A stretch of 64,000 nucleotides of DNA from a phage, in NCBI GenBank assembly GCA_024672315.1, contig GCA_024672315.1_4714.1. One strand, given 5' to 3'. How positions within the stretch are numbered: position 1 is the first letter of the stretch; each line of letters opens with the position of its first letter. The position numbers and the translations under genes were made by a program. This document shows positions 12,053 through 64,000 of this stretch, piece after piece. The notes under the pieces are model-generated. The model searched no databases. It was not told where the DNA came from and saw only the letters and a program-made list of their open reading frames with translations.

Positions 12053-12053
12053 A

Positions 12054-12479: not shown

Positions 12480-12494
12480 GTTCGATTCCTCGTA

Positions 12495-12938: not shown

Positions 12939-13050
12939 GGTAGGTTCCTCTTGATAGTGGTTGATGATAGTAACGGGGACGGCGATGTCCCCTTGGTTTC
13001 TTATTGCCCCGCCCGAACCCGATGAGGTACAGGCGGGTGATGTTGATGCG

Positions 13051-13458: not shown

Positions 13459-13535
13459 TCTAAGCTCCTGTAACGCTCTCTAAGCGTCGTTTTAAGTTAA
13501 GGTATAGTTTCCCTTCTTTGGATTCGTTTATTGCG

Positions 13536-13811: not shown

Positions 13812-13851
13812 GATTTCTGTTGTACTTTCCTTTTCGCTTGTTGGTGTTGGA

Positions 13852-14151
13852 TTAAGGTTTAGGTTCCGTTTTGTGTTGTGCGAGTAGTGTGTTGATCTGC
13901 TCCCGCTGTTCTTTTAAGCATGCGGGAAGTTGGTCTTCCCGTACCGTTCCGATTTCCAACGTGATGTACCAGCGTTGTTCGGAAGCCTGCCATTGAAAAC
14001 TGCTCTGTAACCTCAGGATGTTAGGATCACGTACCTTGCTTGCGCTGTAGCGATCGAACCAATCCAGGTATTCTGCTTTCCCTTCCTCGTCGGCAACGTA
14101 ACGCTGCACGCTGTTCTTCCCTTTGTTTTCGTATCCCGTTGCACGTATCAT
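13852..14151 (-). CDS. hypothetical protein
   Basis: Start moved to ATG 14151 with AAGGAG RBS (track start 14208 lacks RBS and overlaps upstream gene). Confidence 0.45.
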   Translation of the reverse strand: MIRATGYENKGKNSVQRYVADEEGKAEYLDWFDRYSASKVRDPNILRLQSSFQWQASEQRWYITLEIGTVREDQLPACLKEQREQINTLLAQHKTEPKP

Positions 14152-14174
14152 GCGAATGTTTCTCCTTGGTTGTA

Positions 14175-14924
14175 TTAGGGATGGCGCAACATAGTCACAT
14201 CCCAGCATACCAGCTTGCTTTTCTCAAGCATCTTCTGCGCGATATCAACGCTAACTCTAGGATGCATGACAGGTAGCCAACGTTCGTTAAGTACCTTCGC
14301 TTCCAGGCGTTGTTTGCGGGGATTGTAGCGCGCTTCGCTAACCCATGTGTAACCGAAAGGATGGATAACCCGTGGGTAGTAACGTTTAAGCATCACCAGT
14401 CTTTGCTGATAAAGCTTATCGGAACCCTCGCCAACGAATAAGGCAACCCGTTCCAACCGCTTGGTGTAATACGTTCCGGTGGTATGATTGATCCAACCAG
14501 GAAGCGTTCGTACGTCATTTTCAAGTGTTCCTGATACGTTGTGCACTTCACCGCTATACACCGTCCCAACAACCTGATTCGCTGCGTCCACCATCGACCG
14601 TGGCAAAGCATCGGCGGTAGGATACAACCATGCGTCCCCAAGCTGCTCTCCCGACGCAAGTACTCGTAGTCCGCTTGCGCTCATCCGTTGCGGATGCTGA
14701 CTCTTATGCGCACGCAACTGCACCACAGATAAGTCCGCTGGATAGGCGACACAACAACCCCGCTGACGGAACCGTCCAACCTCACCATCCATCCCTTCGA
14801 TCATGCTTCCTTCCGAACCGTTCCACCAACGTTTAACCTTCACGCATTCTGCTTGCACCGCTTCAGGCAACGTTAGATAATCGTGCTCGATAAACACCAC
14901 ATCAAAAATTAATTCATTGTTCAT
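14175..14924 (-). CDS. hypothetical protein
   Basis: 249 aa, AGAGGA RBS; first gene downstream of the promoter-motif pair at 15006-15072. Confidence 0.55.
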   Translation of the reverse strand: MNNELIFDVVFIEHDYLTLPEAVQAECVKVKRWWNGSEGSMIEGMDGEVGRFRQRGCCVAYPADLSVVQLRAHKSQHPQRMSASGLRVLASGEQLGDAWLYPTADALPRSMVDAANQVVGTVYSGEVHNVSGTLENDVRTLPGWINHTTGTYYTKRLERVALFVGEGSDKLYQQRLVMLKRYYPRVIHPFGYTWVSEARYNPRKQRLEAKVLNERWLPVMHPRVSVDIAQKMLEKSKLVCWDVTMLRHP

Positions 14925-15005
14925 GTAAAAAGATCCTCTGTTTCACGTTAACTAAACAACGTGTTGATTTCTATTTGACAGAATACGAACATTGTACGTA
15001 TCTAT

Positions 15006-15028
15006 CACTTAGGTAACGCTTACGCGTC
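15006..15028 (-). promoter_or_regulatory. partial copy of conserved motif
   Basis: CACTTAGGTAACGCTTACGCGTC shares first 11 nt with the motif. Confidence 0.3.
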
Positions 15029-15031
15029 GCG

Positions 15032-15054
15032 TTCATGATGCATGGCATCATGAA
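15032..15054. promoter_or_regulatory. perfect palindrome, operator-like
   Basis: TTCATGATGC-ATG-GCATCATGAA between two promoter-motif copies. Confidence 0.4.
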
Positions 15055-15072
15055 GGTAATATAGTCGTGAAA
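15052..15072 (-). promoter_or_regulatory. conserved motif, candidate promoter for gene 14175-14924
   Basis: GAAGGTAATATAGTCGTGAAA, ~128 nt upstream of ATG 14924; abuts palindrome 15032-15054. Confidence 0.45.
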
Positions 15073-15758
15073 GGATTTGTGTTACAGCAAGGGTTTTGTT
15101 GTTTTTAAGAAGGGATGGATTTAGAAGAGGTGTTGCAAGCAAGGAAGGTAAACGAGGATAGGTATTTTGATTTAAGTAAGTAAGATGTTATCTGTATTCG
15201 TTAAAAGTGTATTGTCTATCTTAAGTTATGTCTTATTGTTTAATCGTTTAATATTTTTATCTAAATAGGTTTAACTCTATCTTGTTTGTATATTTAAATT
15301 AAATCAATAAGCTTATCTTCAAAACAATGGATAACATGTGTTTACTACCTTAACGGTAACACATGTCATCTGTGCATTACACTTCGTTACATGCTAATTA
15401 AATCGGATAACTCAAAAAACATTTGTGATACTCTTCTTCACGTTGTTCATCAGAGTATCCCGTCTATACTCATTGCATTCGTATACGACATAACCGTTAT
15501 ACGCTAACGCTACGCTTATAGCTTGATAACTCTAAGGATAAAAACATAAACTCGCTTCGCTCGTTTAGTTTTTCTTTTTCTTAGAGTTATCCTGTTGCTC
15601 GTCTCTAAAGGACTTCGCTCCTCCCCCGTCCCCCGAAGGGGCCGAGGTCGTGGAAATTTTACTTTCCAAATACATTTACAACATCTGTAAACTTTTACTC
15701 CAGGTACTTAATCTTATCATTAGAAATTATAAAAGAGAAGAATAAACACAAACATAAA

Positions 15759-15791
15759 CCTTCCTCCAACCCAACAGGGAAGGAGGAAGGG
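15759..15791 (-). terminator. CCTCC-family hairpin H3 after gene 15807-16700
   Basis: CCTTCCTCC-AA-CCC-AACA-GGG-AA-GGAGGAAGG; identical to H9. Confidence 0.65.
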
Positions 15792-15806
15792 AGAGATTAA
15801 TTAAAA

Positions 15807-16700
15807 TTAATCAGCGACGTTATAACCGAATACGACTTTACCGTAGGTGTGAGTACCGTCAGCTAATGACAGCACCAGCACGTGGTTGTACGTAGCGTTA
15901 ACGCCCTTGTCGGTAGACTGGGCGGTAGCACCGTTATAGACAAAGGTAGCCGTTTGCAGATTGGTTTTCAGCTCATTGATGATATCATCACTTACACCGG
16001 TCTGCTCTTTGATCAGCGTAGTCAGGTTACCTGCTAAGCCTGCATCGATATTTACTTCGTTGCCGGTAATAGCTTGTAAACCTGCGGTGTAAGTACTGAA
16101 GTCTAACGGATAGGTTAACAGACGTGCTGAGGTCTTGGTACCATCGCCTTCATCAACGTAGGTTAAGTTACCTAGATTGGTAACCTTGATGATGTTAGCC
16201 AGATCCAGCGTGGTGTTATAAACTTTAACTTGAACAGAGCCGTACCACGCCAACGAATCTTCTTTGGCTTCCAGGGTGATCGTCTGGATACCATGCTGGT
16301 CGAAGGTAACCGGCGTAGCTAACGTTTCGGCTTTGATGTCTTTCGTTTTATCCAGGAACTTGTCACCGGAAGGCGTGATCATACCGTAGCGTTGAGCTAC
16401 GAGGTCGACCACATCACCGATGGTGGTGTTAGCAGTAACGTTAACACGTACGGCGATCTTCTGGAACCACTTAGCCAGATCCAGACGATGGTAGGTAACA
16501 TCGCGGTCATTGAAGTAAGGGGTACCATCACCAGGGCTAAGCGTTAAAGTTGCTTCTGGAGCAGAATCACTTTTGGATTTAAGAACGTATTTAAGATCAG
16601 AGTATTGGAATTCGGCACCAGTGTCGGCGTTGAGTTTGTTAATCTCATCAACGATAAGTTGCCAAGGTGTTTTTAAAGTAAGCGAAACTTGAGTTGCCAT
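15807..16700 (-). CDS. abundant virion-type protein, member of ~300-aa paralog family
   Basis: 297 aa; strongly biased enterobacterial codon usage; shares YxR[IL], R[YF]G[ILM] and LAW[YT]GSV blocks with 16842, 27766, 29588 and 30450; hairpin H3 follows 16 nt after stop. Confidence 0.65.
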   Translation of the reverse strand: MATQVSLTLKTPWQLIVDEINKLNADTGAEFQYSDLKYVLKSKSDSAPEATLTLSPGDGTPYFNDRDVTYHRLDLAKWFQKIAVRVNVTANTTIGDVVDLVAQRYGMITPSGDKFLDKTKDIKAETLATPVTFDQHGIQTITLEAKEDSLAWYGSVQVKVYNTTLDLANIIKVTNLGNLTYVDEGDGTKTSARLLTYPLDFSTYTAGLQAITGNEVNIDAGLAGNLTTLIKEQTGVSDDIINELKTNLQTATFVYNGATAQSTDKGVNATYNHVLVLSLADGTHTYGKVVFGYNVAD

Positions 16701-16841
16701 TTTCTACCTCTATGGTTGTTACATCACTCTCAAAAGATGTAAGTGTTTACAGAAATTAATATATTTTATATTAGTGTGAATAATATGGAGAACGACTCCG
16801 AATCTCCTTTTCGACCATCAAAAATCAGAGGACACATTATC

Positions 16842-17384
16842 ATGGCCTTAGACTTTAACAAAGCAGCGAAATCCCTTCTGCTTGATCTTATCAACACCAA
16901 AGCGACCCGCACGCTGACCGAAGAAGAACTGCAGTTCGGTACTCCGCAGGCATCTTCCGAACATCCTAAGAACACCGTTATTCAGCTGGACGCTGCGCCT
17001 GAAGCAGCTAACCTGCAGGGTAGTAAGCAGTTCTACTACGATCGTCTGGCTCTGTCCGACGTTTTCGCTGATGTAACTAGCGATGTTACTTTCGAACTGC
17101 CGCACGGTACCGACAGCATCCAGGCTTCTGAACTGGTAAGCAAGCTGGTCACCAAATTCGGCCTGGCTTCCCTGACCGGTGAAATCAAAGAAGAAACCTT
17201 CCAGCTGTCTGCAGGTACTGTTGCTCAGGTAACTCTGAACGCGATCGAGAATGGCATGGTATATACCGGCACCCTGCAGGTTGCACTGACCTACGCAGCT
17301 GCACCGAAAGATGACCTGGCAACCGTTCTGGCGAATAACGTAGCTGAAGGCTTCGAGAAACCGACCGTTAGCGTTGTTGGCTAA
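16842..17384 (+). CDS. short member of ~300-aa paralog family
   Basis: Start moved to ATG 16842 (AGAGGA RBS, onset of strong codon bias); motifs FYYDRLALSDVF, KFGLASLTGEI, MVYTGTLQV. Confidence 0.6.
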   Translation: MALDFNKAAKSLLLDLINTKATRTLTEEELQFGTPQASSEHPKNTVIQLDAAPEAANLQGSKQFYYDRLALSDVFADVTSDVTFELPHGTDSIQASELVSKLVTKFGLASLTGEIKEETFQLSAGTVAQVTLNAIENGMVYTGTLQVALTYAAAPKDDLATVLANNVAEGFEKPTVSVVG

Positions 17385-17583
17385 TAAGCACATAGAGCAA
17401 TAGTATGGGTTTTGTACAGCTCGGCTATTGCTCTTCTACAATTTGGTTGTAATAATCTGCGTGGTTGCACGCTTATCTTTCTCATTGAGCGCTTCGTATG
17501 AAGCGTGGTGTTGAAAGGGTTGTGGATCTCCTCAAGCGGCCAGGGACCCAGACCAACCTGAATAAACACGAACACCTGTTAAG

Positions 17584-17615
17584 CCCCTCCTCATCCGTTA
17601 TTGGGTGAGGAGGGG
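17584..17615. terminator. CCTCC-like hairpin between convergent genes 16842-17384 and endolysin
   Basis: CCCCTCCTCA / TGAGGAGGGG 10-bp stem followed by T-rich tract on plus strand. Confidence 0.5.
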
Positions 17616-17678
17616 TCTTATACGTCTTTATGCGTTCCGTTCGTTCTGGAGCGTTTTAGGACGGTTTACGGCAGGGTT

Positions 17679-18314
17679 TTATTCAACACTGAAACCGTTC
17701 AAACGAATAGCTTCATAACGCTTACGTTCACGACGTTTACGTGCCTGCCAGCCGTAAATGAACTTCTCGTCTTTCTCACGACGTTCAGCTAATTCGATGT
17801 AGTAGGTGCTCTGCATATCCAACATCGCGTCGATGAGATAATCTTTACCGGTTTCTCCGCGTTTAGCGATGTAAGCGTCGAGTACGCCTAACGTCGCAGG
17901 TCCCATCAAACCGTCGGCGTTGATATCTTTCCAGTAAGTTTGACGATTGTTCATGACGTTAAGGTAACGCTGGAGGTTCTTAACCGCAACCGTTTTACCT
18001 GCATTGATACCCAGGTCAAAGAGACGGTCAGCTAAGAACACAGAACGTTTCATGACTTCGTCAAGCTTCATCTTATCCCAGAAATGAGTCTTGTAGATAA
18101 AGAACGCCATTTCCGTGGTAAGGTTACGCATGTTACCGTTCCAGCCGAATTTCGTTTTCAGCGTGGTTTTGTATTGTTCCGCCAAAGCTTGCGTCACGCC
18201 GTGGTTTGTGATTCCGCCCGAATCATCGGGATCGTCGACGTAACCTGCTTCGATGCTTGTTTTGTCACGAATGATGAATTCGCAGGTAAAATCTTTTTCT
18301 GTAATCTTAGCCAT
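17679..18314 (-). CDS. endolysin, GH108-type lysozyme with peptidoglycan-binding domain
   Basis: N-terminal EAGYVDDPDDSGGITNHGVTQ matches GH108 catalytic signature; AGGAG RBS. Confidence 0.75.
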   Translation of the reverse strand: MAKITEKDFTCEFIIRDKTSIEAGYVDDPDDSGGITNHGVTQALAEQYKTTLKTKFGWNGNMRNLTTEMAFFIYKTHFWDKMKLDEVMKRSVFLADRLFDLGINAGKTVAVKNLQRYLNVMNNRQTYWKDINADGLMGPATLGVLDAYIAKRGETGKDYLIDAMLDMQSTYYIELAERREKDEKFIYGWQARKRRERKRYEAIRLNGFSVE

Positions 18315-18357
18315 TAGAACTCCTCGTTGGAATAACGATTTAGAGGAACAGGAAGGG

Positions 18358-18431
18358 TCTAGAACGCGATAAACGATTTAATCCAGGCAAACCCCAGGTT
18401 AAACTTTTCGGAGCGTTACAACGCGTTCTAG
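18358..18431. promoter_or_regulatory. inverted repeats upstream of endolysin gene
   Basis: TCTAGAACGCG at 18358 and 14-bp perfect palindrome GCGTTCTAGAACGC at 18418-18431. Confidence 0.35.
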
Positions 18432-18440
18432 AACGCTGAA

Positions 18441-20489
18441 TTAAATACCCTTGGTTCCTTTCACGTGATGTGCAATTTCTTCAACCATTGCACGCAGAGC
18501 ACGAAGCTGTTGGTCATGTTCGTACCAACCGCCTAACAGAACCCCGCTATACACCATGGTGTCAAGACTTAACAGCCCTTTATCTGATACGTTGATCATT
18601 TCAGGGAACTGTTCTTGAACACGCTGTGCGATAACACCGATCTTCTCGACATCAGGATCGTAGTTGTGACGGAAACGGGCAAGCCCACTGCGTGCCATTT
18701 CACGTAAACGTTCACTAAGAGATTCTGGATGGTCTTTCAGATAACGGATGTCGTGTTTACTGCGCTCATCTGAACGGATGTAAGCGTTAGGAACATCGAT
18801 GTTGCTGTTGAAGTACAGCGCACTACCACCACCTGCAGAGTTCCCCCAATAGAAGCGCGTGATCTCACCGCCACCATTTTCCGTGATGATAACATGTTTA
18901 CCTAAACGTGTACCACCATTACCATCAACGAAGACCAGTTTGTTTCCGCTGTAAGAACCCCAGAACAAGCGTGTATCGATGATGTGCGTTGCGGCGAGAC
19001 GGGCGTTACGCGGTGTAGAATACACGGTGTTAACATCTTGCTGCGCATGCGCATCGGAAGCGATACCGTAGTTCTGAACGTTCCCCAACCCTACCTGCGC
19101 TTTCGTAACAGCGTGAGGGTTGTCTCGACGGTTAGCGTGAGCGTTAACCAGATCACCCGCTAATTTCTGAATTGCCCAGTTAGTAGACTGTGGTGTCATG
19201 TAACGGTTAGTCGAGGAACCACCTTGCGCTTCAGCTTGGTTAGCGGTTGGGTAGTTCTCAACACTTCCTAACCCTACTTGTGCTTTAGACACTTGGTGTG
19301 GGTTATTCTTGTCAGCGATGTGTGCATTAAGCGGAACTAACGCAAAGGTCTCAATGGACGCTTTGGTTGTGTTCGGTGCCATTAATCGGTTAGCTGCAAC
19401 ACCGGCGCGCGCTTCTTCTTCAGAAGCCATCGGATAGTTTTGCACATTACCTAATCCCACCTGGGCTTTAGTTACCTTGTGTGGGTTGTTGTAATCGGTT
19501 TTGTGTGCATTAAGCGGAATCAGTGCGAACTGTTCAATCGCTGCAACAGTGCGTAGCGGCGTCATGAAACGGTTGTTCGCTGTTCCGGCTTTCGCCTCAC
19601 CATCCGAAGCGGTCGGGAAGTTATCAACGTTCCCAAGGTTAACCTGTGCTTTGGTGACGCTATGCGGGTTATCCCGACGGTTAGCGTGTGCGTCGACGAG
19701 ATCGCCCGCCAGTTTAGCAATTGCCCATCCAACCGTTTGTGCGGTCATGTATCGGTCAGGTGCAGTACCGGCTTCTGCCTCCGCCTTGTTTGCGGTAGGA
19801 TAGTTCTGTACGTTACCGAGTCCGACTTGGGCTTTTGTTACTTCGTGCGGGTTATCGGTACGGTTAGCATGCGCGTAATGCAGATCGGTTAGATCTTTAT
19901 CCGCTGCTTGCATGTCTTTGCGTAGCTGATCGATTGCCGCCCAGAGACGGTTATCGGATGCAGCATCACCGATAAGTATTGCGGCTTTCAGTGAATAGAT
20001 CGCTAAGCAAAGATGTTCGGTACCGTAAATAGCACTAACGTGGTGGATGTGTGGTTCAGGCGGATAAAGTTCCGGTTTGTTCTTGATGTCGTCCCAGTTG
20101 ATCGGACGATCGTCAAGTTTGAGTTCTTCGATAGCCTGATATAACGCGTCAATAAGACTTACGTAAACACCACCGATGATACGATAGTCGTTAACTAACG
20201 TCCCCTCGATATCATCGTTGATGATGGCGATCGCCGCACAGATTTCTTTACCTGCGTAAAGCGTTGCGTCCTGATACAAGAAGATGGGTTTATAATCCAC
20301 GCCTCGCACCAGTGTCTTACCGGTAAGCTTTTCAGTGATGACCAGACTTTCGGTGAAGAACGGTCCGCCATCAAGGGCGTAACATTTATTCTCGGTTCGT
20401 GGAACGGTATGCTCTTCACCAACGATGTGGTTGCTGGCGAGTGTACCGGTCCAGTCCTCGGGGTACTTCAGGGTAATTGGTGTCGACAT
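18441..20489 (-). CDS. tail fibre with NPH repeats and C-terminal S74 intramolecular chaperone domain
   Basis: Five ~55-aa repeats (NPHxVTKAQVGLGNVxNY...YMTP); C-terminal RSDERSK Ser/Lys motif and GWYEHDQQLRAL typical of self-cleaving chaperone domains. Confidence 0.75.
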   Translation of the reverse strand: MSTPITLKYPEDWTGTLASNHIVGEEHTVPRTENKCYALDGGPFFTESLVITEKLTGKTLVRGVDYKPIFLYQDATLYAGKEICAAIAIINDDIEGTLVNDYRIIGGVYVSLIDALYQAIEELKLDDRPINWDDIKNKPELYPPEPHIHHVSAIYGTEHLCLAIYSLKAAILIGDAASDNRLWAAIDQLRKDMQAADKDLTDLHYAHANRTDNPHEVTKAQVGLGNVQNYPTANKAEAEAGTAPDRYMTAQTVGWAIAKLAGDLVDAHANRRDNPHSVTKAQVNLGNVDNFPTASDGEAKAGTANNRFMTPLRTVAAIEQFALIPLNAHKTDYNNPHKVTKAQVGLGNVQNYPMASEEEARAGVAANRLMAPNTTKASIETFALVPLNAHIADKNNPHQVSKAQVGLGSVENYPTANQAEAQGGSSTNRYMTPQSTNWAIQKLAGDLVNAHANRRDNPHAVTKAQVGLGNVQNYGIASDAHAQQDVNTVYSTPRNARLAATHIIDTRLFWGSYSGNKLVFVDGNGGTRLGKHVIITENGGGEITRFYWGNSAGGGSALYFNSNIDVPNAYIRSDERSKHDIRYLKDHPESLSERLREMARSGLARFRHNYDPDVEKIGVIAQRVQEQFPEMINVSDKGLLSLDTMVYSGVLLGGWYEHDQQLRALRAMVEEIAHHVKGTKGI
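19020..19920 (-). repeat. tandem coding repeats (five NPH units) in tail fibre gene
   Basis: Repeated DNA cores encoding NPHxVTKAQVGLGNV. Confidence 0.7.
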
Positions 20490-43320: not shown

Positions 43321-43419
43321 CTGACTTATGTATCACGGTGCCGGATGAATGTCCGGTGCAATGAAACCATCCGCAACGTTGTCGTCAAGAATATCATCCA
43401 ACGAAGCAGCTACGGTAGT

Positions 43420-45642
43420 TCAGTTAGTCTGAACAGGCAGCTTGATGTTTTCAGTGTAGACCTTACGCAGGTTCACAACGTTAATCAGACCCAGCAGCGG
43501 GCAGTTGTTAACGAAGCGGCAGCGCGGCTGAACCATGGTTTCTTTAGAAACCTGACCGTTACGGGTAACCTGAGCAACAGATACCAGTTCCGGTACATAC
43601 AGGAACATACCGAAGGTCAGCGGATCCGGAGAACCCTGGATACCACGAGACAGGGTCACGAAGATCTTATCACGCAGCATGACGTTCGGGTTATCTACAA
43701 CCACGAAGTTGAAGCTTACACCAACGGTACGGAAATCACCATCGGTCTGCAGGAACTGCGGGATGTAGTTGTCAGTTGCTACTACGCAACGCGGTTTCTC
43801 ATCAGCGTTGGAAGACAGCAGCTGCAGAGCTGGCTGATAACCAGACTCGGAGTACATGCGGTATGCCATTTCACGAATCACGTTCATGATCGCAGCAGAC
43901 ACTTCAGCACGACGTTCTGCAGTGGTGGTACCCTGAACAGATTTCTCCAGGTCCAGATTGATTTCTTCGAACCACGGACGGATCAGGTAACGACCGAAAC
44001 CTTCGATCTGGATGTCGCCGAACTGACGGAAGCGAGAGGTCGCAACCGCTTTCAGTGCGTCTTTGTAGCTGAACAGTTTCTCAACCATCAGGTTGTCGAA
44101 ACGTGCGTTAGCAGCCTGGATCAGAACGTCCAGGTCAGCAGCGTTTTCTTCCCAATCCAGCGGACGAGGAATGGAGAACGGAGCCAGCAGGCCGATTGCG
44201 TAACGTTCTTGCTTCATGTTGAAGTCAAGGTGCTTACCGCGTTCACGACGGTTGCTGTTGTTACGACGGATACGCAGTTCGTAACCAACCAGTTTGAAGC
44301 TCAGGTCTTCAGCCAGCTGTTTGAACTCTTCGCTCTTACGCGGTTGTTCGATGTTGTCCTGATCAACCAGGCGATACAGTTCAGCGTTAGCGCCGTTAAC
44401 ACGCAGACCGGCTTTCTCTACGTTGGAAGAACCGTAAACTTCGATTGCCAGCTGAGCAGCGGATTTCGAATCGATGATGTCCTGCAGCGCTTCAGCTCGT
44501 GCACCTTTAACGTCAACGGTGTGCTCATCAACGAAGATGGAGTGGGTGTCGAACGCCAGGGTCATTTTGCGGAAGTCGCCTTCCAGGGATTTCTGGAAAC
44601 CGTTGGTGATCAGACCAGATACGTCGAACGGTACGTAAGAGGTTTTGCTGTGCTTGGTAGATTTGATTTCCACCAGGATTTTGGTCAGCGTGATCTGAGC
44701 ATCCAGCGCATCGGTGTTGTCGCTGTAACCGTTAGCCAGAATGCTATCGTCTTCAGCGATACCGATCATGTCGATCAGTTTATCAACAGCCAGGTAAGAC
44801 GTTTTATAAGTTACGCCTTTAATTTCGATGTCGCGCGGAGCAACGATAGTTTTGTCAACGAAGTACTGCGCGTTAGCATCGTCAGCACGATAGATCGGAT
44901 GCAGATCGGTCACGTCGTTGGACAGAACGTCGTTGTACATGAACGCATCCAGCAGCGGACGACGTACCCAATCAGCCGGAGTACCGTCAGCGTTACGGCG
45001 CAGGTGGTTGAACACCAGCGGACGACGGAAAGATACATCGTAACCGATCTGGTTCGGAGCCAGAACGATGGTGTTGTACAGTTCGTTACCCATGCGGCTC
45101 AGACGAGAAGCCTTCACGTTGAACACAACGGAGTACGGCATCATGTCACGCAGTTCTTTCTGGTCGTAGGACAGCTGAACCAGTTCTTCAGATTCGCAAC
45201 CGCAGGAATCAGCAGCCATCATGACGAAGTTAGAGCTGTCAACTTCACGGCCAGACGGAGTGGTGCTGATGTTCATGGAACGTGCTTGTTTAGCATATTC
45301 CACCGGGTTGCCATGAGCCAGCATGATCAGTGCTGCTGCACGAGCCTGCTGTGCGTTCATGGTGAACAGCTGTTCTTCAATACGCTGCTTCTCTTCCGGA
45401 GTGGTGGTTTCGAAGCCCAGCATGGACAGAACCGGTTCTTCTGCTTTACGGATGTCGCTGCTGAAGCTCTTAACATCCATTTCGTTAACCAGTTTGTCCA
45501 TGGATTTGAAATCAACCTTAGAAGCAGATTCCATAGACAGGAAGGTGTTCTCCAGACCTTTGTCTGCTGGTTTGCTACCATTAGCGGTCAGGAACTGGCG
45601 AGTGGCCGCGACCTGTTGGCTAAGAAGGGTTTTATCATTCAT
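43420..45642 (-). CDS. major virion structural protein, tentatively major capsid (tail sheath not excluded)
   Basis: 740 aa; extreme enterobacterial codon bias; AAGGAT RBS; size fits large-phage capsid proteins; N-terminal ~160 aa contain several S/A/G-x-E sites. Confidence 0.45.
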   Translation of the reverse strand: MNDKTLLSQQVAATRQFLTANGSKPADKGLENTFLSMESASKVDFKSMDKLVNEMDVKSFSSDIRKAEEPVLSMLGFETTTPEEKQRIEEQLFTMNAQQARAAALIMLAHGNPVEYAKQARSMNISTTPSGREVDSSNFVMMAADSCGCESEELVQLSYDQKELRDMMPYSVVFNVKASRLSRMGNELYNTIVLAPNQIGYDVSFRRPLVFNHLRRNADGTPADWVRRPLLDAFMYNDVLSNDVTDLHPIYRADDANAQYFVDKTIVAPRDIEIKGVTYKTSYLAVDKLIDMIGIAEDDSILANGYSDNTDALDAQITLTKILVEIKSTKHSKTSYVPFDVSGLITNGFQKSLEGDFRKMTLAFDTHSIFVDEHTVDVKGARAEALQDIIDSKSAAQLAIEVYGSSNVEKAGLRVNGANAELYRLVDQDNIEQPRKSEEFKQLAEDLSFKLVGYELRIRRNNSNRRERGKHLDFNMKQERYAIGLLAPFSIPRPLDWEENAADLDVLIQAANARFDNLMVEKLFSYKDALKAVATSRFRQFGDIQIEGFGRYLIRPWFEEINLDLEKSVQGTTTAERRAEVSAAIMNVIREMAYRMYSESGYQPALQLLSSNADEKPRCVVATDNYIPQFLQTDGDFRTVGVSFNFVVVDNPNVMLRDKIFVTLSRGIQGSPDPLTFGMFLYVPELVSVAQVTRNGQVSKETMVQPRCRFVNNCPLLGLINVVNLRKVYTENIKLPVQTN

Positions 45643-45791
45643 TGAAAGTATCCTTTACAGAATTAACTTATATAAGTCGGTCGATAGACCATAGCGTACA
45701 CGCGTGCATGCGCCACTATAGTATCAGTAAACACTTACCGTTATTGAGGTCGTGATACAACACTAAAAATGCCGCATAACTTTTCCCTACG

Positions 45792-55767: not shown

Positions 55768-58700
55768 TTACTTGTAGGCACCGCAATGGGCTTTGATGAG
55801 GAAAAGCACCGCTTGCATCGGTTTATTGAACTGTTGCCATAACGTCAATGCCGGATGGAACAACCAATCTTCCAGGCCGAGAACAATACCGTAGTTAACG
55901 ACATTATTAACGTCGTTCTCAACGTTGAGTTCGCTGTCCAGGAATTTATCGATTGAACGCAGGGTCTGCATGGCATTGTCAGCAATAAGCCAAGCTTCAT
56001 GCGCTTCACGAGCCGCACGCAGCACTGCTTCCAGTTCGCTGATAGTGGCTACCGGTAATTCCTCACTGGTAAGGTCGTCAGATACCGTAAACTGGCGATT
56101 GATACCGGTGTAGATCCACTGCATCAGTTTCGCTGCTTCCTCGTTCGGGTTGTTACGCGTTGTCGCATAAGTCGCGCTCACCTTCACGATGTGTGTTTCA
56201 CCAAGATACGCCTTGGAACCAACACCTTTACGATCGCTGTCTTTCCACGGTTGTACGGTAGCGACCATGAGCTTATCCCATTTCTGAATAGGAATACGCT
56301 TCAGACCAACAACCGATCCGGCGGATGTTTCGGACTGGTTGCTCTTCCGCACGTCGCTGAGTTCACGATCGATAGCAACGATTAATTCACGCGTCATGTT
56401 ACCAAGCATTTTGATTTCACCCAACGCAGCGATGAGCTTCTTCACATCGGTAACAGGTTCACCACCGATGGTAAGATGACGGATGAAACGTTTCAGAATA
56501 ATCCGTTCTGCTGCTGGGTTACCGCGACGCGCTTTAGCCAATGCTTGCTGTGTTTCGGCGAACAGCTTATCCCATGGAGCCGTAGCGGCGGTATAGTAAC
56601 GGTGGTTGGTTTCAATCCAGTTACCGATACGGTTGACCGCGTTCTTAACGGTATCCATGAATCCTTCCATCGCAATTTCGGTAGCTTCGACGTTACCCTG
56701 GAAGTTATCAGGACCGATCTCACGTGCCGCGACCAGAATACCTTCCACCGCGCTCACCGCGTGGCGACCGATAGCTAGATTTCGCTGCGCTTCCTCAGCA
56801 CGCTCAACGAATTCCACCACAGCTGGATCGTCAACGATTTCCGCCTCGGCAATAGCACGTGTACCTGCATCGCCTTCCAGTGTTTCGATGGTGACAACAG
56901 GATCGTTTTCACCAGCAACATCCTGGTATTCTTCCTGTTTGAGATCGCCGTTATCAGCCGATGCGACAGCGGTGAGTATACGAACGGTAACATCGCCGAG
57001 TTCTTTTGAGGCAAACCCGTAAACAACGCATGCTGTTTTTGCGAAGTTCATCAGCGTGCGTGTGCGTTTAACGATGTAGCCGACATCGTAATCATTACCG
57101 CTCTTATCGATGTCACGGATTAACTGTTCAGCCGTTTCTTGAAGGATAGATACTGACTTCAAGAGATCGTCTTCAAACAGTTTCTTCGACACCTCAACCA
57201 ACATATCAGCATTGATGTTGGGTGGGGTTTTGTCGCCCTGCTGTTTCATCTCGCTTAATTCATCGCGGAACTTATTGATTCCATCTAAAGCGGCACTGGC
57301 GGTATGTCCGAACGCAGCCACGCCTGGCATTGTTGTTGCTGTCAGCATGTCCGCATCAGCGTTTGGACTTTCGCCTTCTTTAAGATCCTTCAGCTGGTCG
57401 AAGAACTTACGAGATGCTTCAGCGATACGTTTGCTGTCTTTAACTGCATTTACGATCTTATCGACGGATTTAGCGTCGTTTGCAAGCAGCGTATCGAGTT
57501 TGTTCCATTCGACATCGACTTTCGCTGCATCCTTAGTATCGCTTGGTGGAGGAAGCAGTTTTGTCACCGGGGTCGTGCGTTGTTCTTTGGTCAGCTTGTT
57601 GGCCTTCTCTTCGATTTTTTTCTTATTAACACCAAAGAGATTTTTCAAACGCGCCACGAGGGCTTTTAAGAACTTCGCGACCGCTTCGTAAACCGATTTC
57701 AGAATCTGTTTAAAGCGACCTGGCTGCTTTTCCCCGTCTTCCAGATTGAGATCGCTGTTCAGTGCGACATCAAGCTGTTTGTACGATTCCATGATGTATT
57801 CGTCTTTGATTTCAGGACGAATCTCGAAGCTTTCCATCGGACCTTCAGCCGGACGGAATTCCATTTTCAGTTCGCCTTGCAGGGTAGGGTCGACAATGGC
57901 GATAGCTTCACCCTGACCATCAGCGTTAAAGCGTTCAGCGTAACGAGTACGACGAACAATAACACTCTTATCCCCATCAAGACGACGTACCACCATGGTG
58001 CCAGGAATGTACGGTTGTTCTGTTTCAATGACGGTTACATCTGCCTCACCTTCACCGAGAATAACCGATGCGCGCTGTTCAACAACCGGAACATCTAATA
58101 CGCCACGGGCTTCCAGCTCTTGATGAATTTCGAACGACTCTTGTTTCAGATCTTCATCTTCTTCGTTTTCGTCGTCTTCATCATCGTCACCTTCGGTGTT
58201 TTCATCACCCTTGGTGGTTGTGTCGTCGGTGGCACCAGCGTCAGCGTCGGTGTTAGCAGGTTCTTCGGACGCAGGTTCGGTGGTGCTGTCCTCGGTGGGT
58301 GTTTCGTCAGTGTTATCGACATCAACATCACCTTGCAGTTCTGTTTCCTGAGCAACTGCTTCGGCTTTCTGCTCACCGGTATTACCGTCATTAGCGTCGA
58401 CAACAGGTTGTTCGTCAGCGACGGTATCTTCAACCTTTTCTACTTTCTCCACGACACGTTTAATCACGGTGACTTTGATGGGTTCTTCCGTTGTTTTGGT
58501 TTCTGGCGTCACCTCGGCTGCCGCAGCCGCTGTTTCAGCAACAGGTTCTGCTTTTTCCGGTTCGACGACATTACCTTTAACGCCTTCGGTGGTTTCTGCA
58601 GGTTGCGCTGCCTGTTCGATTTGCGCTGGATTGGTTGGATCGATGGCGTTAGCCGCATCCTGAATCTTGTTCTTCAGGTTGTCGCGGTCAGCGTTAACGG

Positions 58701-59154
58701 TCGGGTCGTTGGTCACTTTCGGTGCCGGTGTTTCGGTCGGTGCGTTTGCCGGATACGGGTTCTTCGGCTCTTCACCAGGTGCGGTCGGCACCGCGATCAG
58801 AACGAACGGTTGAACATCGTTACCATCTTCCATGGTCACGCCACCATTGCTCGGTGTGAAACGAATTCGCAAACTACCATCAATAGGACGGGTCACAATA
58901 ACAGCACGTACGACATCTTCACCGTTCTCATCCGTGCTACGAATCACACGAACGGCGTCATCAACAGTAGCCCCTTCCTCGAGCGTATCTGATTCGATCG
59001 TCGCTTCGATGCTGTCTGGCCGTGCCGCTGTAGGTAATGCGATCACTTGCTCTTCTTTATCAGTAGAAAGCGTTGCTTTGACTTCGATAGGTGTATCGCC
59101 GCTTTCCAGGTTAAGATGCGACTTACGCATCAGATCAGCTAACGATTTTTTCAT
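55768..59154 (-). CDS. very large virion-type protein with central acidic low-complexity segment
   Basis: 1128 aa; AGAGGA RBS; central D/E/T-rich stretch; no enzymatic motif recognised. Confidence 0.6.
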   Translation of the reverse strand: MKKSLADLMRKSHLNLESGDTPIEVKATLSTDKEEQVIALPTAARPDSIEATIESDTLEEGATVDDAVRVIRSTDENGEDVVRAVIVTRPIDGSLRIRFTPSNGGVTMEDGNDVQPFVLIAVPTAPGEEPKNPYPANAPTETPAPKVTNDPTVNADRDNLKNKIQDAANAIDPTNPAQIEQAAQPAETTEGVKGNVVEPEKAEPVAETAAAAAEVTPETKTTEEPIKVTVIKRVVEKVEKVEDTVADEQPVVDANDGNTGEQKAEAVAQETELQGDVDVDNTDETPTEDSTTEPASEEPANTDADAGATDDTTTKGDENTEGDDDEDDENEEDEDLKQESFEIHQELEARGVLDVPVVEQRASVILGEGEADVTVIETEQPYIPGTMVVRRLDGDKSVIVRRTRYAERFNADGQGEAIAIVDPTLQGELKMEFRPAEGPMESFEIRPEIKDEYIMESYKQLDVALNSDLNLEDGEKQPGRFKQILKSVYEAVAKFLKALVARLKNLFGVNKKKIEEKANKLTKEQRTTPVTKLLPPPSDTKDAAKVDVEWNKLDTLLANDAKSVDKIVNAVKDSKRIAEASRKFFDQLKDLKEGESPNADADMLTATTMPGVAAFGHTASAALDGINKFRDELSEMKQQGDKTPPNINADMLVEVSKKLFEDDLLKSVSILQETAEQLIRDIDKSGNDYDVGYIVKRTRTLMNFAKTACVVYGFASKELGDVTVRILTAVASADNGDLKQEEYQDVAGENDPVVTIETLEGDAGTRAIAEAEIVDDPAVVEFVERAEEAQRNLAIGRHAVSAVEGILVAAREIGPDNFQGNVEATEIAMEGFMDTVKNAVNRIGNWIETNHRYYTAATAPWDKLFAETQQALAKARRGNPAAERIILKRFIRHLTIGGEPVTDVKKLIAALGEIKMLGNMTRELIVAIDRELSDVRKSNQSETSAGSVVGLKRIPIQKWDKLMVATVQPWKDSDRKGVGSKAYLGETHIVKVSATYATTRNNPNEEAAKLMQWIYTGINRQFTVSDDLTSEELPVATISELEAVLRAAREAHEAWLIADNAMQTLRSIDKFLDSELNVENDVNNVVNYGIVLGLEDWLFHPALTLWQQFNKPMQAVLFLIKAHCGAYK

Positions 59155-59169: not shown

Positions 59170-60276
59170 TTAAAAGTAATATTTCAGCGCCTCGCGAGAG
59201 ACATCAAGCATAGCCGCTGTTGAATTCGTAAAGAACTCGGCATAGCCCACAAGCGGCACCTTGATCCACGCGGTATACGCTGTAAGGTATCGAGAAAGGG
59301 CTACCATAGCATCATCAGAAGCAGTAGTAACTGACAACTGACCTTGTTGACGATAAACGTCGTTAAGTTTTGCTTGTAGATTCCCTGCGATTTCGAGTAA
59401 CTCGTTGGCGTACTTTTTACGATGGTAACTAACCAGTAAATCAACACCCTTATTCACAGACTCGAGTAGCACACCAACTTGTTCTAATGATGGCATTGTA
59501 ACCACCATATCCCGTTCAACGGACGGTACATCCTGGACTTCAAACCGTGCGGATTGAATAGCAAGGGATTGTTGAATTGGACCAGAACCTGAGGTGGTAA
59601 CCTGATCGAGTCGTAGCGTACGGTTGCCCAGTAACGTTACGTTGACAAGTCTCGATTCGTTCAGCGTACCGTAGACTTTATGCAGTAACGTATACGCGTC
59701 ACGGTTAATCACATCGATTAATGCGGTATCCGTCTGTTTTAAGATAATGTCGAGCGCTCTATCTAACGTATTAGCGAACTGCTTGAAATCATCACGGAAC
59801 GACGAAGACAAGAGATATTCAGCGATTGCCAAATTCTGTTTGTATAACGTATTCCCAGTTGTGAAGTCGAATCCAAAACTGTTCCCATACCGTAGGTGCG
59901 GTGCCAGCGTTGACGAAGCTTCGAAGCTTTGCGCGATGGGTTTACGACCAACGGCTTTTGTGTAGTGACGGCGGATGTTGCTGAGTTCGAGCTGTAGTGC
60001 GCGACTACGATCGATAAACCGTGCGATAAACGCAGTAATGTTCCGCAACGTTGTCCAGATTGCATCGATGATAGCTTTGATGATTTTCATCGCAAGCTGA
60101 TCGTACGATTCCATCGTGAGGAGATCAGCACTTTCTGTGGTATAACTGGTTGCTGGAATACCGCCTGCTTGCTGATAAATAAGCTGGTGAATTTTTCGTT
60201 GCGTTGCTGTCTCTGGCACAGGTAATGTTTTTAACAAGCTTAACGCTTGAATCTGTCCATCATAGGTCTGCAGCAT
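59170..60276 (-). CDS. hypothetical virion-type protein
   Basis: Start placed at ATG 60276 with GAGGAA RBS (track start 60327 lies inside upstream gene). Confidence 0.5.
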   Translation of the reverse strand: MLQTYDGQIQALSLLKTLPVPETATQRKIHQLIYQQAGGIPATSYTTESADLLTMESYDQLAMKIIKAIIDAIWTTLRNITAFIARFIDRSRALQLELSNIRRHYTKAVGRKPIAQSFEASSTLAPHLRYGNSFGFDFTTGNTLYKQNLAIAEYLLSSSFRDDFKQFANTLDRALDIILKQTDTALIDVINRDAYTLLHKVYGTLNESRLVNVTLLGNRTLRLDQVTTSGSGPIQQSLAIQSARFEVQDVPSVERDMVVTMPSLEQVGVLLESVNKGVDLLVSYHRKKYANELLEIAGNLQAKLNDVYRQQGQLSVTTASDDAMVALSRYLTAYTAWIKVPLVGYAEFFTNSTAAMLDVSREALKYYF

Positions 60277-61561
60277 TGCTGGTTTCCTCAAGTTCGAGAT
60301 GCGCGTCAAGATAATCATTAAGACCATCGATGACGTCGCAGACAGTTAACAGGAATCGGGCAAAAGCAACCGCCTGGAAGCCGACGACGTTACGCGCGAT
60401 ACCCACGCGTTGAACGATAGCGGATGCTGCGGTATCGCTGTTATCCATCTGTTGTAGCAAACGCTCGTAAGGTTGAATCCATTCGTCCTGGTCGGCAAGG
60501 CTTGCTTCAAGACAACGTTTAAATTCCAACTGTCGTAGCGTAGACCATAACGTACTTAATGCGTTGATGATCGCGTTGGTTCCGTCGATAACATCGTTTA
60601 ACGGCAAGAAACGGAATCCGTCTTTTGCTGATTGGAAAGATACGGCTTCCCACACAACGCTGAACTGCGTTCCTGTTGCGTCTTCGATGTTGTGTAATTT
60701 AAGATAGGAAGCACCAACAGGTACGTCAACGACCAGATCGTCTGTTCCGGTAGGCGTTAACGGCTTCTCGCATAACGCATCGTTGATGACCTCGAGAATA
60801 TTCTCCCAACAGGCTTCGTTTTCTGCAGCGATACCTTCTTTGTTATCCACTGATGGTGCTTTTAGTAGCTGCATTAATAACGGATCGAGTTGACGATGCC
60901 ATGCTGCGAGGATTCCTGTGTTCGTTACGATGTTTTCTGCGGTTTGTCGTAAATCAGCAATACTGCTTACCGCGCCGCCTTTCGGATGAAGATATCGCCA
61001 GTTGTAGGGAAAGTTCTCCCAGAATGCATTATCTTCATCGACGTCGTATTCGGAAATAGTTTTCAGCGCAGCCGCTTTCTTTAATAACGGCTTCACCTGA
61101 CGAACGAATCGACGATAACAACGATTGCAGATATCGATCGCGTAACGGTATAACTCGTTCATGTAAAGCCATAACGCACGGGTTGCTTCTTTTGCGGTCT
61201 TGTCAAAACTTTCCATGTTCAAGCTCATCCCGCTGGAAGTTTCCTCTTCCAGACCCTCGATGATTTGGTTTGGGTCCATTCCCATTCCGGCTGCTGCGGT
61301 TGTTGCGATATGTTTGATCGTGCTGATATCGCGTTCTTCAACTTCAGCCATGTTTGGGACAATATCCAGCCGGAGTTTATTTAATGTTTGAAGGTGTTGT
61401 TCACCTTCTTTCATCGCCACGTTTGTTTCGTCGATTGAGTGAAACTGATTCTCAATATTACTGGCATCGAGAATATTGCCAGCGATACCGAACGATTCTA
61501 CAGGTTCATCATCAATCCCTTGAAACAACGATGTCATGGGTTGTTGTAACACGTTTTCCAT
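60260..61561 (-). CDS. head-internal-protein-like paralog with acidic N-terminal region
   Basis: 433 aa; AGGAG RBS; N-terminus and block IKHIATTAAAGMGMD parallel IRQIASTSAANLGMSD of 61710-62999. Confidence 0.55.
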   Translation of the reverse strand: MENVLQQPMTSLFQGIDDEPVESFGIAGNILDASNIENQFHSIDETNVAMKEGEQHLQTLNKLRLDIVPNMAEVEERDISTIKHIATTAAAGMGMDPNQIIEGLEEETSSGMSLNMESFDKTAKEATRALWLYMNELYRYAIDICNRCYRRFVRQVKPLLKKAAALKTISEYDVDEDNAFWENFPYNWRYLHPKGGAVSSIADLRQTAENIVTNTGILAAWHRQLDPLLMQLLKAPSVDNKEGIAAENEACWENILEVINDALCEKPLTPTGTDDLVVDVPVGASYLKLHNIEDATGTQFSVVWEAVSFQSAKDGFRFLPLNDVIDGTNAIINALSTLWSTLRQLEFKRCLEASLADQDEWIQPYERLLQQMDNSDTAASAIVQRVGIARNVVGFQAVAFARFLLTVCDVIDGLNDYLDAHLELEETSNAADL

Positions 61562-61667
61562 TTGGGACTCCTACGTAGGAAAATCTTGGCGGGTGATCAT
61601 GTCCGCCATTTACCTTCTGAACCGTTGATTCAGAAGTCAAAAGATAACCGGATACCAACGCCATAAA

Positions 61668-61700
61668 CCTTCCTCCAACCCAACAGGGAAGGAGGAAGGG
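61668..61700 (-). terminator. CCTCC-family hairpin H9 after gene 61710-62999
   Basis: Identical core to H3; shared upstream CATAAACC. Confidence 0.65.
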
Positions 61701-61709
61701 ATATAGTGG

Positions 61710-62999
61710 TTATGCTTTTTCGGTTACAGCATCGAAGTATTTCGCTGCAGCAAATACAGCATCTGCATATTGACGGTTAGCAACACGGAGGATCTTAGCT
61801 GCTAATACTGCACTCAAGCGTGCCATTTCAGAAATGGCGCTTATATAAGGGCGAACGGTTTCACGATCTGCTTCCGGTAGATTGTCGAGCATACCGTCCC
61901 ATTTAGTTTTAATTTTCATACCGTTTAGTTTAGCAGTACGTTCGACAGTACTTGTTAAACTTTCTGTCTGGCGAAAATACGCGGGGTCAACGACACGAAA
62001 CGCGTTAAGATACGAAGTCAGTGCGGCTTTCAATTCGTCGTCGTTATTGAAAATGTTCGCGTTTTCGATACTACCGGTCGCGGTTTCTTCAACTTCGATC
62101 TGAATATTCTTCACGAGCGCGCAGGCCTTAATGGTATCTTTCTCAGCCATAAGGGCGTCAAGACCTTTAACAACATATCGTTTCCCACCGCTTTCTGGTA
62201 GTTTGAGTCCTTTTAACGCAGGCTTGATGGCGTAAATATAATCGTCCAGAATATCGGCAAGTGTCGTCAAATCGGTTAGTTTATTAACTTTCTTGTTAAT
62301 GTCGTCAGTTTGGAGTAGTAAAAAAGCGGATGCTTGTGTGGATGCCGCTAACTGCTCGATATGTTTACGAACCTCCAACGCGTTAACCATTTTTGCGTTA
62401 GGGAACATGCTAATCATATTCCCGGTCGGTTTATTTATTTGTTTGAGGTGACGCTCGCCTTTATTTACAGCGGTTGCAACATCAGTAATTTTTTTATACG
62501 CTACCGCAAGGTTTTTGAAAAGCAGCTGAATCAGCTTACATAACTGTTCAGCCATGTTCGCAATGATTACCCAAACTGCGTATAACGCTTGTGCTGCGCG
62601 TTCTTTAAAGCCTTCCAGCACAATAGCTTGCCCTTCCACCAAACGATCGTCAGCTTGGAACATGTCTTCATCAGACATCCCCAGGTTTGCTGCTGACGTC
62701 GAAGCAATCTGACGGATAAGGGCGACGTCGCTCGCACGTGCTTCCGGGATCGTAGGCGCGATCATGTATGCGGTATCTTCCAGCGTTGCTGAGGTACGCA
62801 CTGCAATTTCAGCCAGTTCGCTAGATTCATCGATCGTCTCGTCGGTGCGTCGAATCACCAACTCAACTTCGTCCTCTTCGATTTCTGCGTTGGGATCATT
62901 TTGCTCCGCTGGAATTGTCGCAAGAAGATCTTCGGCGCTCAGCAAAGCGAGTTCGAATGCGTTTTTATTGACGTTATCAAAAAGAGAGATGCGGGCCAT
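61710..62999 (-). CDS. head-internal-protein-like paralog with acidic N-terminal region
   Basis: 429 aa; AAGGAA RBS; paralogous to 60260-61561; hairpin H9 10 nt after stop. Confidence 0.55.
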   Translation of the reverse strand: MARISLFDNVNKNAFELALLSAEDLLATIPAEQNDPNAEIEEDEVELVIRRTDETIDESSELAEIAVRTSATLEDTAYMIAPTIPEARASDVALIRQIASTSAANLGMSDEDMFQADDRLVEGQAIVLEGFKERAAQALYAVWVIIANMAEQLCKLIQLLFKNLAVAYKKITDVATAVNKGERHLKQINKPTGNMISMFPNAKMVNALEVRKHIEQLAASTQASAFLLLQTDDINKKVNKLTDLTTLADILDDYIYAIKPALKGLKLPESGGKRYVVKGLDALMAEKDTIKACALVKNIQIEVEETATGSIENANIFNNDDELKAALTSYLNAFRVVDPAYFRQTESLTSTVERTAKLNGMKIKTKWDGMLDNLPEADRETVRPYISAISEMARLSAVLAAKILRVANRQYADAVFAAAKYFDAVTEKA

Positions 63000-63008
63000 G
63001 TTAGTTCC

Positions 63009-64000
63009 TTAACCTTTGGTATAAGCTTTAACGAGAGTGTTGATAAATGAAGTCAGTGCGCGAAGATACTGGTAAGCGAATTGGTTTTCAATACGGTTCT
63101 CTTTACCGCAAAGCAGAATCGCGCGCTTAACGAGCTTAGGATAGATCTCGATGTACGGTTGGTAGCTCGCATCAAAATTCTGCTCGTTGAAGCGTTTCAT
63201 GGTGATTTCCTGGATGCGCTCCATGGTGCGAATTTTATTGCGAGAGAACATCTCAGAGAAAGCACGTCCGCGTTTTGTTACCATCAACAGATCTTTCGCG
63301 AACGTCAGTTGTCGAACGCTACGCAAATCGTCAGGTGTCGGCAGGACGTACGTTTCTGGATCGCTATCCCATTCAACATCTTCAACGACAATATCCAAGT
63401 CGAGGTAACGTTTAACCACATCGATGATATTGTCTTTTGACGCATCGAATTCTTTCAAGAAGACCGCACCGTTGATGTAGCGGATACGTTTTCCGGAAAC
63501 CGTTGGGGTGATAACGTCAGTACCTTCCACGGAACCGCGATTTTCCAGTGTCGATTTGACGGCGTGCAAGAAAGACAGATAATCAACGGGAAGTTTTTCG
63601 ACCTTATCTAAATGGAAGTCGATGATGTTTAATCCTAACCCATCAATAACCGAATGACCATCCGATTTAAGGAACATCTGATTGAAGGTATCGATGTTGC
63701 TTTTCAGTGCGTCTACACCACCAACGTTGTTACGGTTAGGGAAAAGCGTCCGCCATTCTGGTTTAAACACAACCTCTTTATTTTCCTCGTATTTGCCTTT
63801 AGGCATTTGTTCGAGGTCTGCAACGGCTTTCTGAAAATTGCGTGTCTCGTCGTAAACAAGACGGGTAAGCTTCTCGAAGGCTGCTGCCAAGGTCAGGGCA
63901 ATATCAACAATGATATCCCAGATCTTTTTCATGGCTTTTACAACGGTGTCCTTAAACCCTTCAACAACCAAAGCTTCTCCAACCTCAACACGATCGGTTG
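63009..64000 (-). CDS. hypothetical protein, 5' end beyond window
   Basis: Frame stays open to position 64000; track start at 63971 is only a TTG codon. Confidence 0.5.
   Translation of the reverse strand, partial: TDRVEVGEALVVEGFKDTVVKAMKKIWDIIVDIALTLAAAFEKLTRLVYDETRNFQKAVADLEQMPKGKYEENKEVVFKPEWRTLFPNRNNVGGVDALKSNIDTFNQMFLKSDGHSVIDGLGLNIIDFHLDKVEKLPVDYLSFLHAVKSTLENRGSVEGTDVITPTVSGKRIRYINGAVFLKEFDASKDNIIDVVKRYLDLDIVVEDVEWDSDPETYVLPTPDDLRSVRQLTFAKDLLMVTKRGRAFSEMFSRNKIRTMERIQEITMKRFNEQNFDASYQPYIEIYPKLVKRAILLCGKENRIENQFAYQYLRALTSFINTLVKAYTKG

Follow-up and report, generated by a model that had tools for sequence, protein, structure and literature searches.

Probable PF12699 internal head proteins encoded by six tandem genes of a Goslar-like chimallivirus, with predicted maturation junctions

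To which protein family do the tandem genes at the end of this jumbo phage sequence belong, and are their acidic N-terminal parts removed as the head matures? The stretch analysed, referred to here as the window, comprises 64,000 nucleotides of GenBank assembly GCA_024672315.1 (contig GCA_024672315.1_4714.1), and the question is raised by positions 59170-64000, which match Escherichia phage vB_EcoM_Goslar over their full length with 96.0% nucleotide identity. Goslar, a nucleus-forming Escherichia coli jumbo phage of the Chimalliviridae, has the same genes, gp53-gp58, with order and strand unchanged, and the phage of the window is a variant of it at that level of identity. A reading made from the sequence alone had proposed that the open reading frames (ORFs) at 60260-61561 and 61710-62999 are paralogues with acidic N-terminal segments and a common motif, that the genes flanking them are similar in size and context, and that the group recalls inner-body or ejection proteins of phiKZ-like phages cleaved by the prohead protease. 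We find that gp54, gp55, gp56 and gp57, together with gp53, are very probably members of a six-gene tandem array of the PF12699 family (phiKZ_IP, 'phiKZ-like phage internal head proteins'), also called 'paralog family A', in a Goslar-like chimallivirus. Both the family identity and the virion location are already published for the 97-98% identical Goslar proteins and are not new.

The correspondence between window and Goslar genes was taken from the Goslar annotation and the ORF list, in which the minus strand carries every gene discussed:

55768-59154, minus strand: gp53 orthologue, 1128 amino acids (aa), the final gene of the array
59170-60276, minus strand: gp54 orthologue, 368 aa, start supported by a ribosome-binding site, probable PF12699 member
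60260-61561, minus strand: gp55 orthologue, 433 aa, paralogue of gp56 and gp57
61710-62999, minus strand: gp56 orthologue, 429 aa, with an acidic N-terminal and a basic C-terminal part
63009-64000, minus strand: gp57 orthologue, C-terminal 329 of 438 aa, its start lying beyond the window

Of the six tandem genes, gp53-gp56 are thus complete in the window, gp57 is cut (its frame runs open from 63009 to the window end, with no stop), and gp58, 440 aa in Goslar, lies directly outside. The gp54 start at 60276 has a GAGGAA ribosome-binding site upstream, which is lacking from the longer alternative beginning with the ATG at 60327. The gp55 and gp56 proteins are 97.5% and 97.7% identical to those of Goslar. 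The ratio of nonsynonymous to synonymous divergence (dN/dS) ranges from 0.03 to 0.23 across orthologues where dS is unsaturated, it being not computable for the saturated C-terminal parts of gp56 and gp57; the array genes are therefore real genes under purifying selection wherever dS can be estimated.

The two ORFs first singled out, gp55 and gp56, carry the shared motif at these positions:

61277-61318, minus strand: IKHIATTAAAGMGM, residues 82-95 of gp55
62676-62717, minus strand: IRQIASTSAANLGM, residues 95-108 of gp56

In translation both match the pattern I[KR][HQ]IA[ST]T[AS]AA..GM. BLASTP with composition-based statistics aligned gp55 with gp56 over 94 aa (E 3e-8, 26% identity), gp56 with gp57 (E 4e-18) and gp55 with gp57 (E 1.6e-9). 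Profile comparison with hhalign matched gp56 to gp57 with a probability of 98.3% over 378 columns and, with distant orthologues added, the gp56/57 family to the gp55 family at 99.4% (E 3.8e-21); because this match extends over 348 columns, gp55 and gp56 are homologous from end to end, beyond the N-terminal block. The low pairwise identity might suggest that the similarity is merely compositional, arising from acidic, alanine-rich low complexity in two unrelated ORFs. We give this explanation practically no credence: it is refuted by a BLASTP score reached despite the composition-based statistics, by the full-length profile match, and by conservation of the motif in the orthologues of a distant relative, L010 (ENA ERZ926030 contig, 179,666 bp, array at 10001-19668), whose gp58 is 45% identical. 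BLAST detected no similarity of gp54 to gp55 or gp56, and shallow hhalign comparisons did not link gp54, gp58 or gp53 to gp55-57; deeper ones did so solely through a profile of the phiKZ and SPN3US proteins. Translation, BLASTP and hhalign together bear out the paralogy and common motif claimed in the sequence-only reading, and of the flanking genes, gp57 is a clear paralogue and gp54 belongs to the same Pfam family though without BLAST similarity.

The gathering threshold of PF12699 is 27 bits, and gp58 exceeds it with 82.4 bits. The in-window paralogues gp54-gp57 all fall short on their own scores: gp54 reaches 23.4 bits (E 4e-5, profile positions 89-384 of 387), gp57 reaches 21.3 bits, and gp55 and gp56 yielded no Pfam or PHROG match of their own to the family. 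For gp53, a PHROG match to 'internal head protein' covers residues 825-933, and its C-terminal part aligned with the phiKZ/SPN3US set in hhalign (E 1.6e-4, 270 columns). With no Pfam match of their own, gp55 and gp56 are placed in the family through orthologues, paralogues and profile-profile links. Against PF12699, the L010 proteins X_387 (orthologue of gp54, E 2.2e-37) and X_453 (orthologue of gp55, E 1.4e-30) score 63.8 and 23.7 bits, respectively; a relative of 452 aa, P0121, which the gp56 profile matches at 1.5e-16, scores 28.6 bits. Against a profile built from phiKZ gp92-97 and SPN3US gp53/54, hhalign gave 89% for the gp56/57 profile (E 2.3e-6, 178 columns) and 95% for that of gp58 (E 2.7e-8), and it aligned the IRQIASTSAANLGM motif of gp56 with ISRQAAAFMHVGM of phiKZ gp93.

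The genomic context points the same way. The neighbouring gp59 scores 159 bits against PF25618 (PhiKZ_gp91, vertex-binding protein), and hidden Markov models (HMMs) of gp59, gp60 and gp61 match phiKZ gp91, gp90 and gp89 and SPN3US gp52, gp51 and gp50, respectively; the array therefore occupies the position of phiKZ gp92-97 and SPN3US gp53-54, within the head-gene cluster. The gene order is kept in six related contigs, namely five metagenomic Goslar-like ones and the distant L010. A common predicted fold was found for gp56, whose AlphaFold 2 model has low confidence at residues 1-157 and a predicted local distance difference test (pLDDT) score of about 70-93 at residues 158-429. Foldseek returned 42 BFVD matches for this model at E<=1e-3, and the named ones are virion, internal head or uncharacterised proteins of phiKZ-like jumbo phages, including 201phi2-1, Psa21, PhiEaH1 and Noxifer.

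Some results weigh against the assignment or leave it unaided. The missing Pfam and PHROG matches of gp55 and gp56 are one such point, and the AlphaFold 2 model of gp55, with a pLDDT of 41, is another, being unusable. The gp56 model had no Foldseek match in the PDB with E below 0.1, and a sequence search of the PDB with gp58 gave no match. HMMs built from 6-7 close orthologues missed the phiKZ and SPN3US members; since the gp58 model missed them likewise, this result is uninformative on gp55 and gp56. Searches with tblastn of gp55, gp56 and gp58 against 50,697 phage records recovered Goslar only, plus one weak Pseudomonas match to gp58, word-indexed protein searches recovered only Goslar-like sequences and three remoter gp58 relatives (45-48% identity), and with the gp56 profile an exhaustive HMM search returned just 9 matches.

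Published work on Goslar agrees with the assignment. A preprint of April 2026 reports PF12699 in gp53 and gp58, the PF12699 fold in AlphaFold 3 models of gp54-gp57, and synteny of the region with phiKZ gp92-97; it also reports that all six proteins are found in purified virions by liquid chromatography-tandem mass spectrometry, at about 330 (gp53), 70 (gp54), 50 (gp55), 60 (gp56), 50 (gp57) and 2150 (gp58) copies per virion (bioRxiv 10.64898/2026.04.21.720040). The same preprint terms the role of gp53-58 an unsolved mystery, and it is silent on propeptides, cleavage sites, the common motif and allele swapping. Fused to superfolder GFP (gp58-sfGFP), gp58 is packaged, enters the host with the DNA and labels the early infection vesicle; delivery into the host has been shown for gp58, by means of this fusion, and for gp60/gp61 only. 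The guess that these are phiKZ-like inner-body or ejection proteins is thus supported by synteny, Pfam, profile-profile comparison, the gp56 fold and published virion data, and absence from virions, which would have spoken against it, is contradicted by the Goslar virion proteome.

We then considered the N-terminal parts. Their acidity, noted in the sequence-only reading, is evident for gp55 (residues 1-117, net charge -17, isoelectric point (pI) 4.14) and gp56 (residues 1-129, net charge -21, pI 4.05), and it extends to gp57 (residues 1-122, net charge -19) and gp58 (residues 1-149, net charge -26); the N-terminal part of gp54 is short (56 aa) and weakly acidic. The C-terminal parts of gp56 (pI 9.05), gp58 (9.31), gp54 (8.87) and gp53 (8.51) are basic, that of gp57 is close to neutral (6.98) and that of gp55 is acidic (4.65). 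In gp53 an acidic extension of 830 aa, with a net charge of -83 and hypervariable stretches, precedes the PF12699-like domain, which takes up about 300 aa at the C-terminus. The N-termini of gp56 (MARISLFDNVNKNAFE16) and gp57 (MVHIPLFATQGDISLE16) are mutually alike and resemble that of phiKZ gp93 (MSLLKMLDKLSLE13), a protein reported to be cut at SLE-13 (PMC5694885).

In SPN3US, experimental cleavage sites are available for gp53 (AAQE125↓GWKETLK) and gp54 (VARE137↓SLWDDIK), the latter having an extra site at E124 (PMC10052503). In an unsupervised alignment made with MAFFT from all members in Goslar, L010, phiKZ and SPN3US, the sites SPN3US gp53 E125↓G and gp54 E137↓S share one column with E↓(G/S)(F/Y) of the Goslar proteins. 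The acidic SPN3US propeptides, 125 and 137 aa long, come off at E↓GW and E↓SL, and these sites align with E↓GF and E↓SF of the array proteins. The following junctions are predicted from this column:

61208-61219, minus strand: NME117↓S118 in gp55
62610-62621, minus strand: VLE129↓G130 in gp56, supported by MAFFT and hhalign
63957-63968, minus strand: VVE122↓G123 in gp57
minus strand: AME830↓GF in gp53 and TME56↓SY in gp54
Junction-spanning tryptic peptides of predicted sites: LVEGQAIVLEGFK and VEVGEALVVEGFK

Glutamate stands at P1 of the junction in all six paralogues. The phiKZ proteins gp92-97 all have S-x-E↓ in the same column, and hhalign aligns AIVLE↓GFKERAAQ of gp56 with VISLE↓DLKEKLKE of phiKZ gp93. 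In gp58 the P3 column holds F, and S-F-E149↓SF occurs at a nearby upstream column, which is that of the SPN3US gp54 E124 site. At the gp56 junction the charge switches from acidic to basic and the long helix in the confident part of the model begins, and the IKHIATTAAAGMGM/IRQIASTSAANLGM motif lies upstream of it, in what would be the propeptide.

A protease that could act there is encoded by Goslar. Goslar_00223 (MK327938, 203033-203839, outside the window) matches phiKZ gp175 (tblastn, 3.8e-21) and the PhiEaH1 head maturation protease (tblastn, 1.3e-29); annotated just as 'hypothetical protein', it is a homologue of the gp175-type prohead protease, of which we found no copy in the window. 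In the major capsid protein (MCP; 43420-45642, minus strand), GCE150↓S and SEE153↓L lie shortly ahead of residue 158, the first one modelled in the published structure, and these sites are consistent with an S/A/G-x-E specificity.

Taken together, N-terminal processing of gp55 and gp56 is predicted by homology and is, on balance, likely. Several observations count against it. The P3 residues of gp54-57 fall outside S/A/G, and cleavage at the homologous site would need a non-canonical P3 in these four proteins. Other S/A/G-x-E sites do occur in the N-terminal parts (GLE105 and AKE125 in gp55; AFE16, SAE23 and SDE111 in gp56) and are kept within Goslar-like phages, and none of them is found at the same position in L010. 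Further points come from the section of the Goslar virion peptide table considered here, which covers only peptides beginning with A to about E. In it, gp55 peptide 52-62 is present at low intensity, the junction-spanning AME↓GF peptide of gp53 is present at low intensity and with a low score, and peptide 202-220 of the gp53 extension is abundant (area 79,000). Since both junction and extension peptides of gp53 are detected, removal of the N-terminal part is not general, and the gp53 extension seems to be kept in virions. Peptides 55-72 and 115-128 of gp58 are also listed in that section, likewise at low intensity. For gp57 residues 167-176 (about 63798-63827) it lists the semi-tryptic ADLEQMPK and not the fully tryptic AVADLEQMPK, which hints at either a non-tryptic cut after K-A-V in the mature part or a mass spectrometry artefact.

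The points just listed could also mean that gp54-57 are packaged yet remain uncut, at full length in the virion, and that only gp58 and canonical S/A/G-x-E substrates are processed. Such a division would agree with T, N, V and V at the junction P3 of gp54, gp55, gp56 and gp57, set against A in gp53 and the S-F-E of gp58 at its nearby upstream column, with the virion peptide of gp55, and with the fact that about 80% of head proteins in SPN3US remain uncleaved. We nevertheless regard it as rather unlikely, since P1 E and the following G/S-F/Y are conserved in all six paralogues and also, at below 50% identity, in the gp53, gp55 and gp56/57 orthologues of L010, the charge switch falls exactly on it, and a non-canonical TFE site has been reported in 201phi2-1. 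In the same section of the peptide table, moreover, the N-terminal peptides checked for gp56 (peptide 89-96, 1 of 1) and gp57 (3 of 3) were not found, and C-terminal peptides of both proteins were. A different possibility concerns function, namely that these proteins mainly play a structural part inside the head, organising DNA packaging as a scaffold or an inner-body spool, instead of entering the host as effectors. The earliest description of the family was as constituents of the phiKZ inner body, the basic C-terminal part of gp56 (pI 9.05) would suit contact with DNA, and a homologue of the T4 scaffold protein is unconfirmed in these phages. Inner-body density is absent from Goslar (10.64898/2026.04.21.720040), an observation that also counts against the assignment favoured here, and from recent phiKZ reconstructions; gp54-57 are minor components (about 50-70 copies each) next to gp58, and gp58 and several phiKZ members are injected. 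Exchange of C-terminal domains between alleles of gp56 and gp57, described below, would also be unusual for a fixed architectural part, and we consider a mainly structural role doubtful.

Returning to the preferred reading of a packaged and processed family, we propose that the N-terminal module is made up of a short leader (M..[IL].LF..) whose end, at about residue 16, is x-x-E, of RQIA-T-AA--GM as the motif, and of E↓(G/S)(F/Y) as the junction. The acidic module would direct the protein into the assembling prohead, as do the capsid-targeting sequence of T4 and the propeptides of SPN3US. The gp175-like protease Goslar_00223 may then cut at the junction, as suggested by homology with SPN3US gp53/54, this being the weakest step. 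The C-terminal domain, mainly helical with short strands and basic in gp56, would stay with the packaged DNA and might be ejected into the early infection (EPI) vesicle alongside gp58.

Comparison with characterised phages places these features in context. In phiKZ, six tandem paralogues (gp92-97) lie downstream of gp89-gp91, as in the Goslar array, and the largest, extension-bearing member comes last (gp97), like gp53. The phiKZ proteins also have an acidic N-terminal part, an RQ-AA motif and an x-x-E junction ahead of a long helix. However, there is no direct HMM or BLAST similarity between the two arrays, and profile-profile comparison is needed to connect them. All six phiKZ members have S at P3, from which gp54-57 differ, and several of them are present at 100-200 copies, whereas one protein dominates in Goslar. 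The SPN3US proteins gp53 and gp54, ejection proteins of 'paralog family A', occupy the same place after the homologues of gp50-52, but there are just two of these paralogues, each exceeding 600 copies, and their motif is strictly A-x-E. In T4, a leader ending in x-x-E targets IPI-III and Alt to the prohead core, the prohead protease removes it and the mature protein is injected with the DNA, as background given in PMC5694885 has it. These T4 proteins function alike and are not homologous to those of the array, and their leader is 10-20 aa long, compared with 56-149 aa for the N-terminal module here (830 aa in gp53).

Variation among Goslar-like phages is distributed unevenly along these proteins. 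The N-terminal parts of gp56, gp57 and gp58 are better conserved than the C-terminal ones; between gp56 and its counterpart in the relative L002, for example, they are 86% and 57% identical, respectively. Mosaicism was scanned with a 150-nt sliding comparison of Goslar (L001, 12001-18582) against L002 and L004-L007, covering window positions 61710-64000. Nucleotide identity is 55-80% in the gp56 and gp57 C-terminal domains and in the centre of the gp58 C-terminal part, and 95-99% in the adjoining N-terminal modules. L006 is 95-97% identical to Goslar across the gp57 C-terminal and gp56 N-terminal parts, falls to 57-67% from the gp56 junction on, and is back to 98% in the gp56-gp55 spacer. L005 has the reverse pattern, with 59-73% in the gp57 and 80-89% in the gp56 C-terminal part. 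The putative breakpoints lie at the predicted maturation junction and at gene ends, in combinations that vary by relative, and synonymous divergence is saturated in several of the C-terminal comparisons. To judge from these alignments, the pattern points to whole-allele replacement of the gp56 and gp57 C-terminal domains, with putative breakpoints at the junction.

The distant relative L010 has five paralogues rather than six. A single L010 gene, X_463, matches both gp56 (1.1e-39) and gp57 (9e-22), and the gp56/gp57 pair would accordingly reflect either a duplication in the Goslar-like lineage or a loss in L010.

Two further features of the window were recorded. Within the window the array has a single sizeable gap, the spacer between gp56 and gp55:

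61562-61709, minus strand: gp56-gp55 spacer with three coding-strand hairpins, one of them an annotated terminator in Goslar

The hairpins are CCTTCCTCC...GGAGGAAGG followed by TTTAT, TCTGAA...TTCAGA, and TGGCGG...CCGCCA followed by AGATTTT; a scan for sigma-70 promoters and terminators gave results at background level. Elsewhere, an unusually long ORF of 766 aa (43345-45645, plus strand) runs antisense across the whole MCP gene (43420-45642, minus strand, 740 aa), and it is probably an artefact of codon usage.

PF12699 proteins are among the most abundant passengers of the chimallivirus capsid, and their function is an acknowledged question. The family call made from sequence alone was correct and agrees with published work, and it adds little by itself. 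What may prove useful is the set of predicted maturation sites in gp53-57 (AME830↓G, TME56↓S, NME117↓S, VLE129↓G and VVE122↓G, in gene order), along with the further predictions that the shared motif falls within the expected propeptide and that recombination hot spots coincide with the mature domains of gp56 and gp57. The non-canonical P3 residues of the minor paralogues might mean that their processing differs from that of the bulk protein gp58. Very tentatively, the array could be viewed as a modular delivery locus, in which a conserved acidic packaging and propeptide module is joined to interchangeable C-terminal cargo, and the minor paralogues would be diversifying injected effectors.

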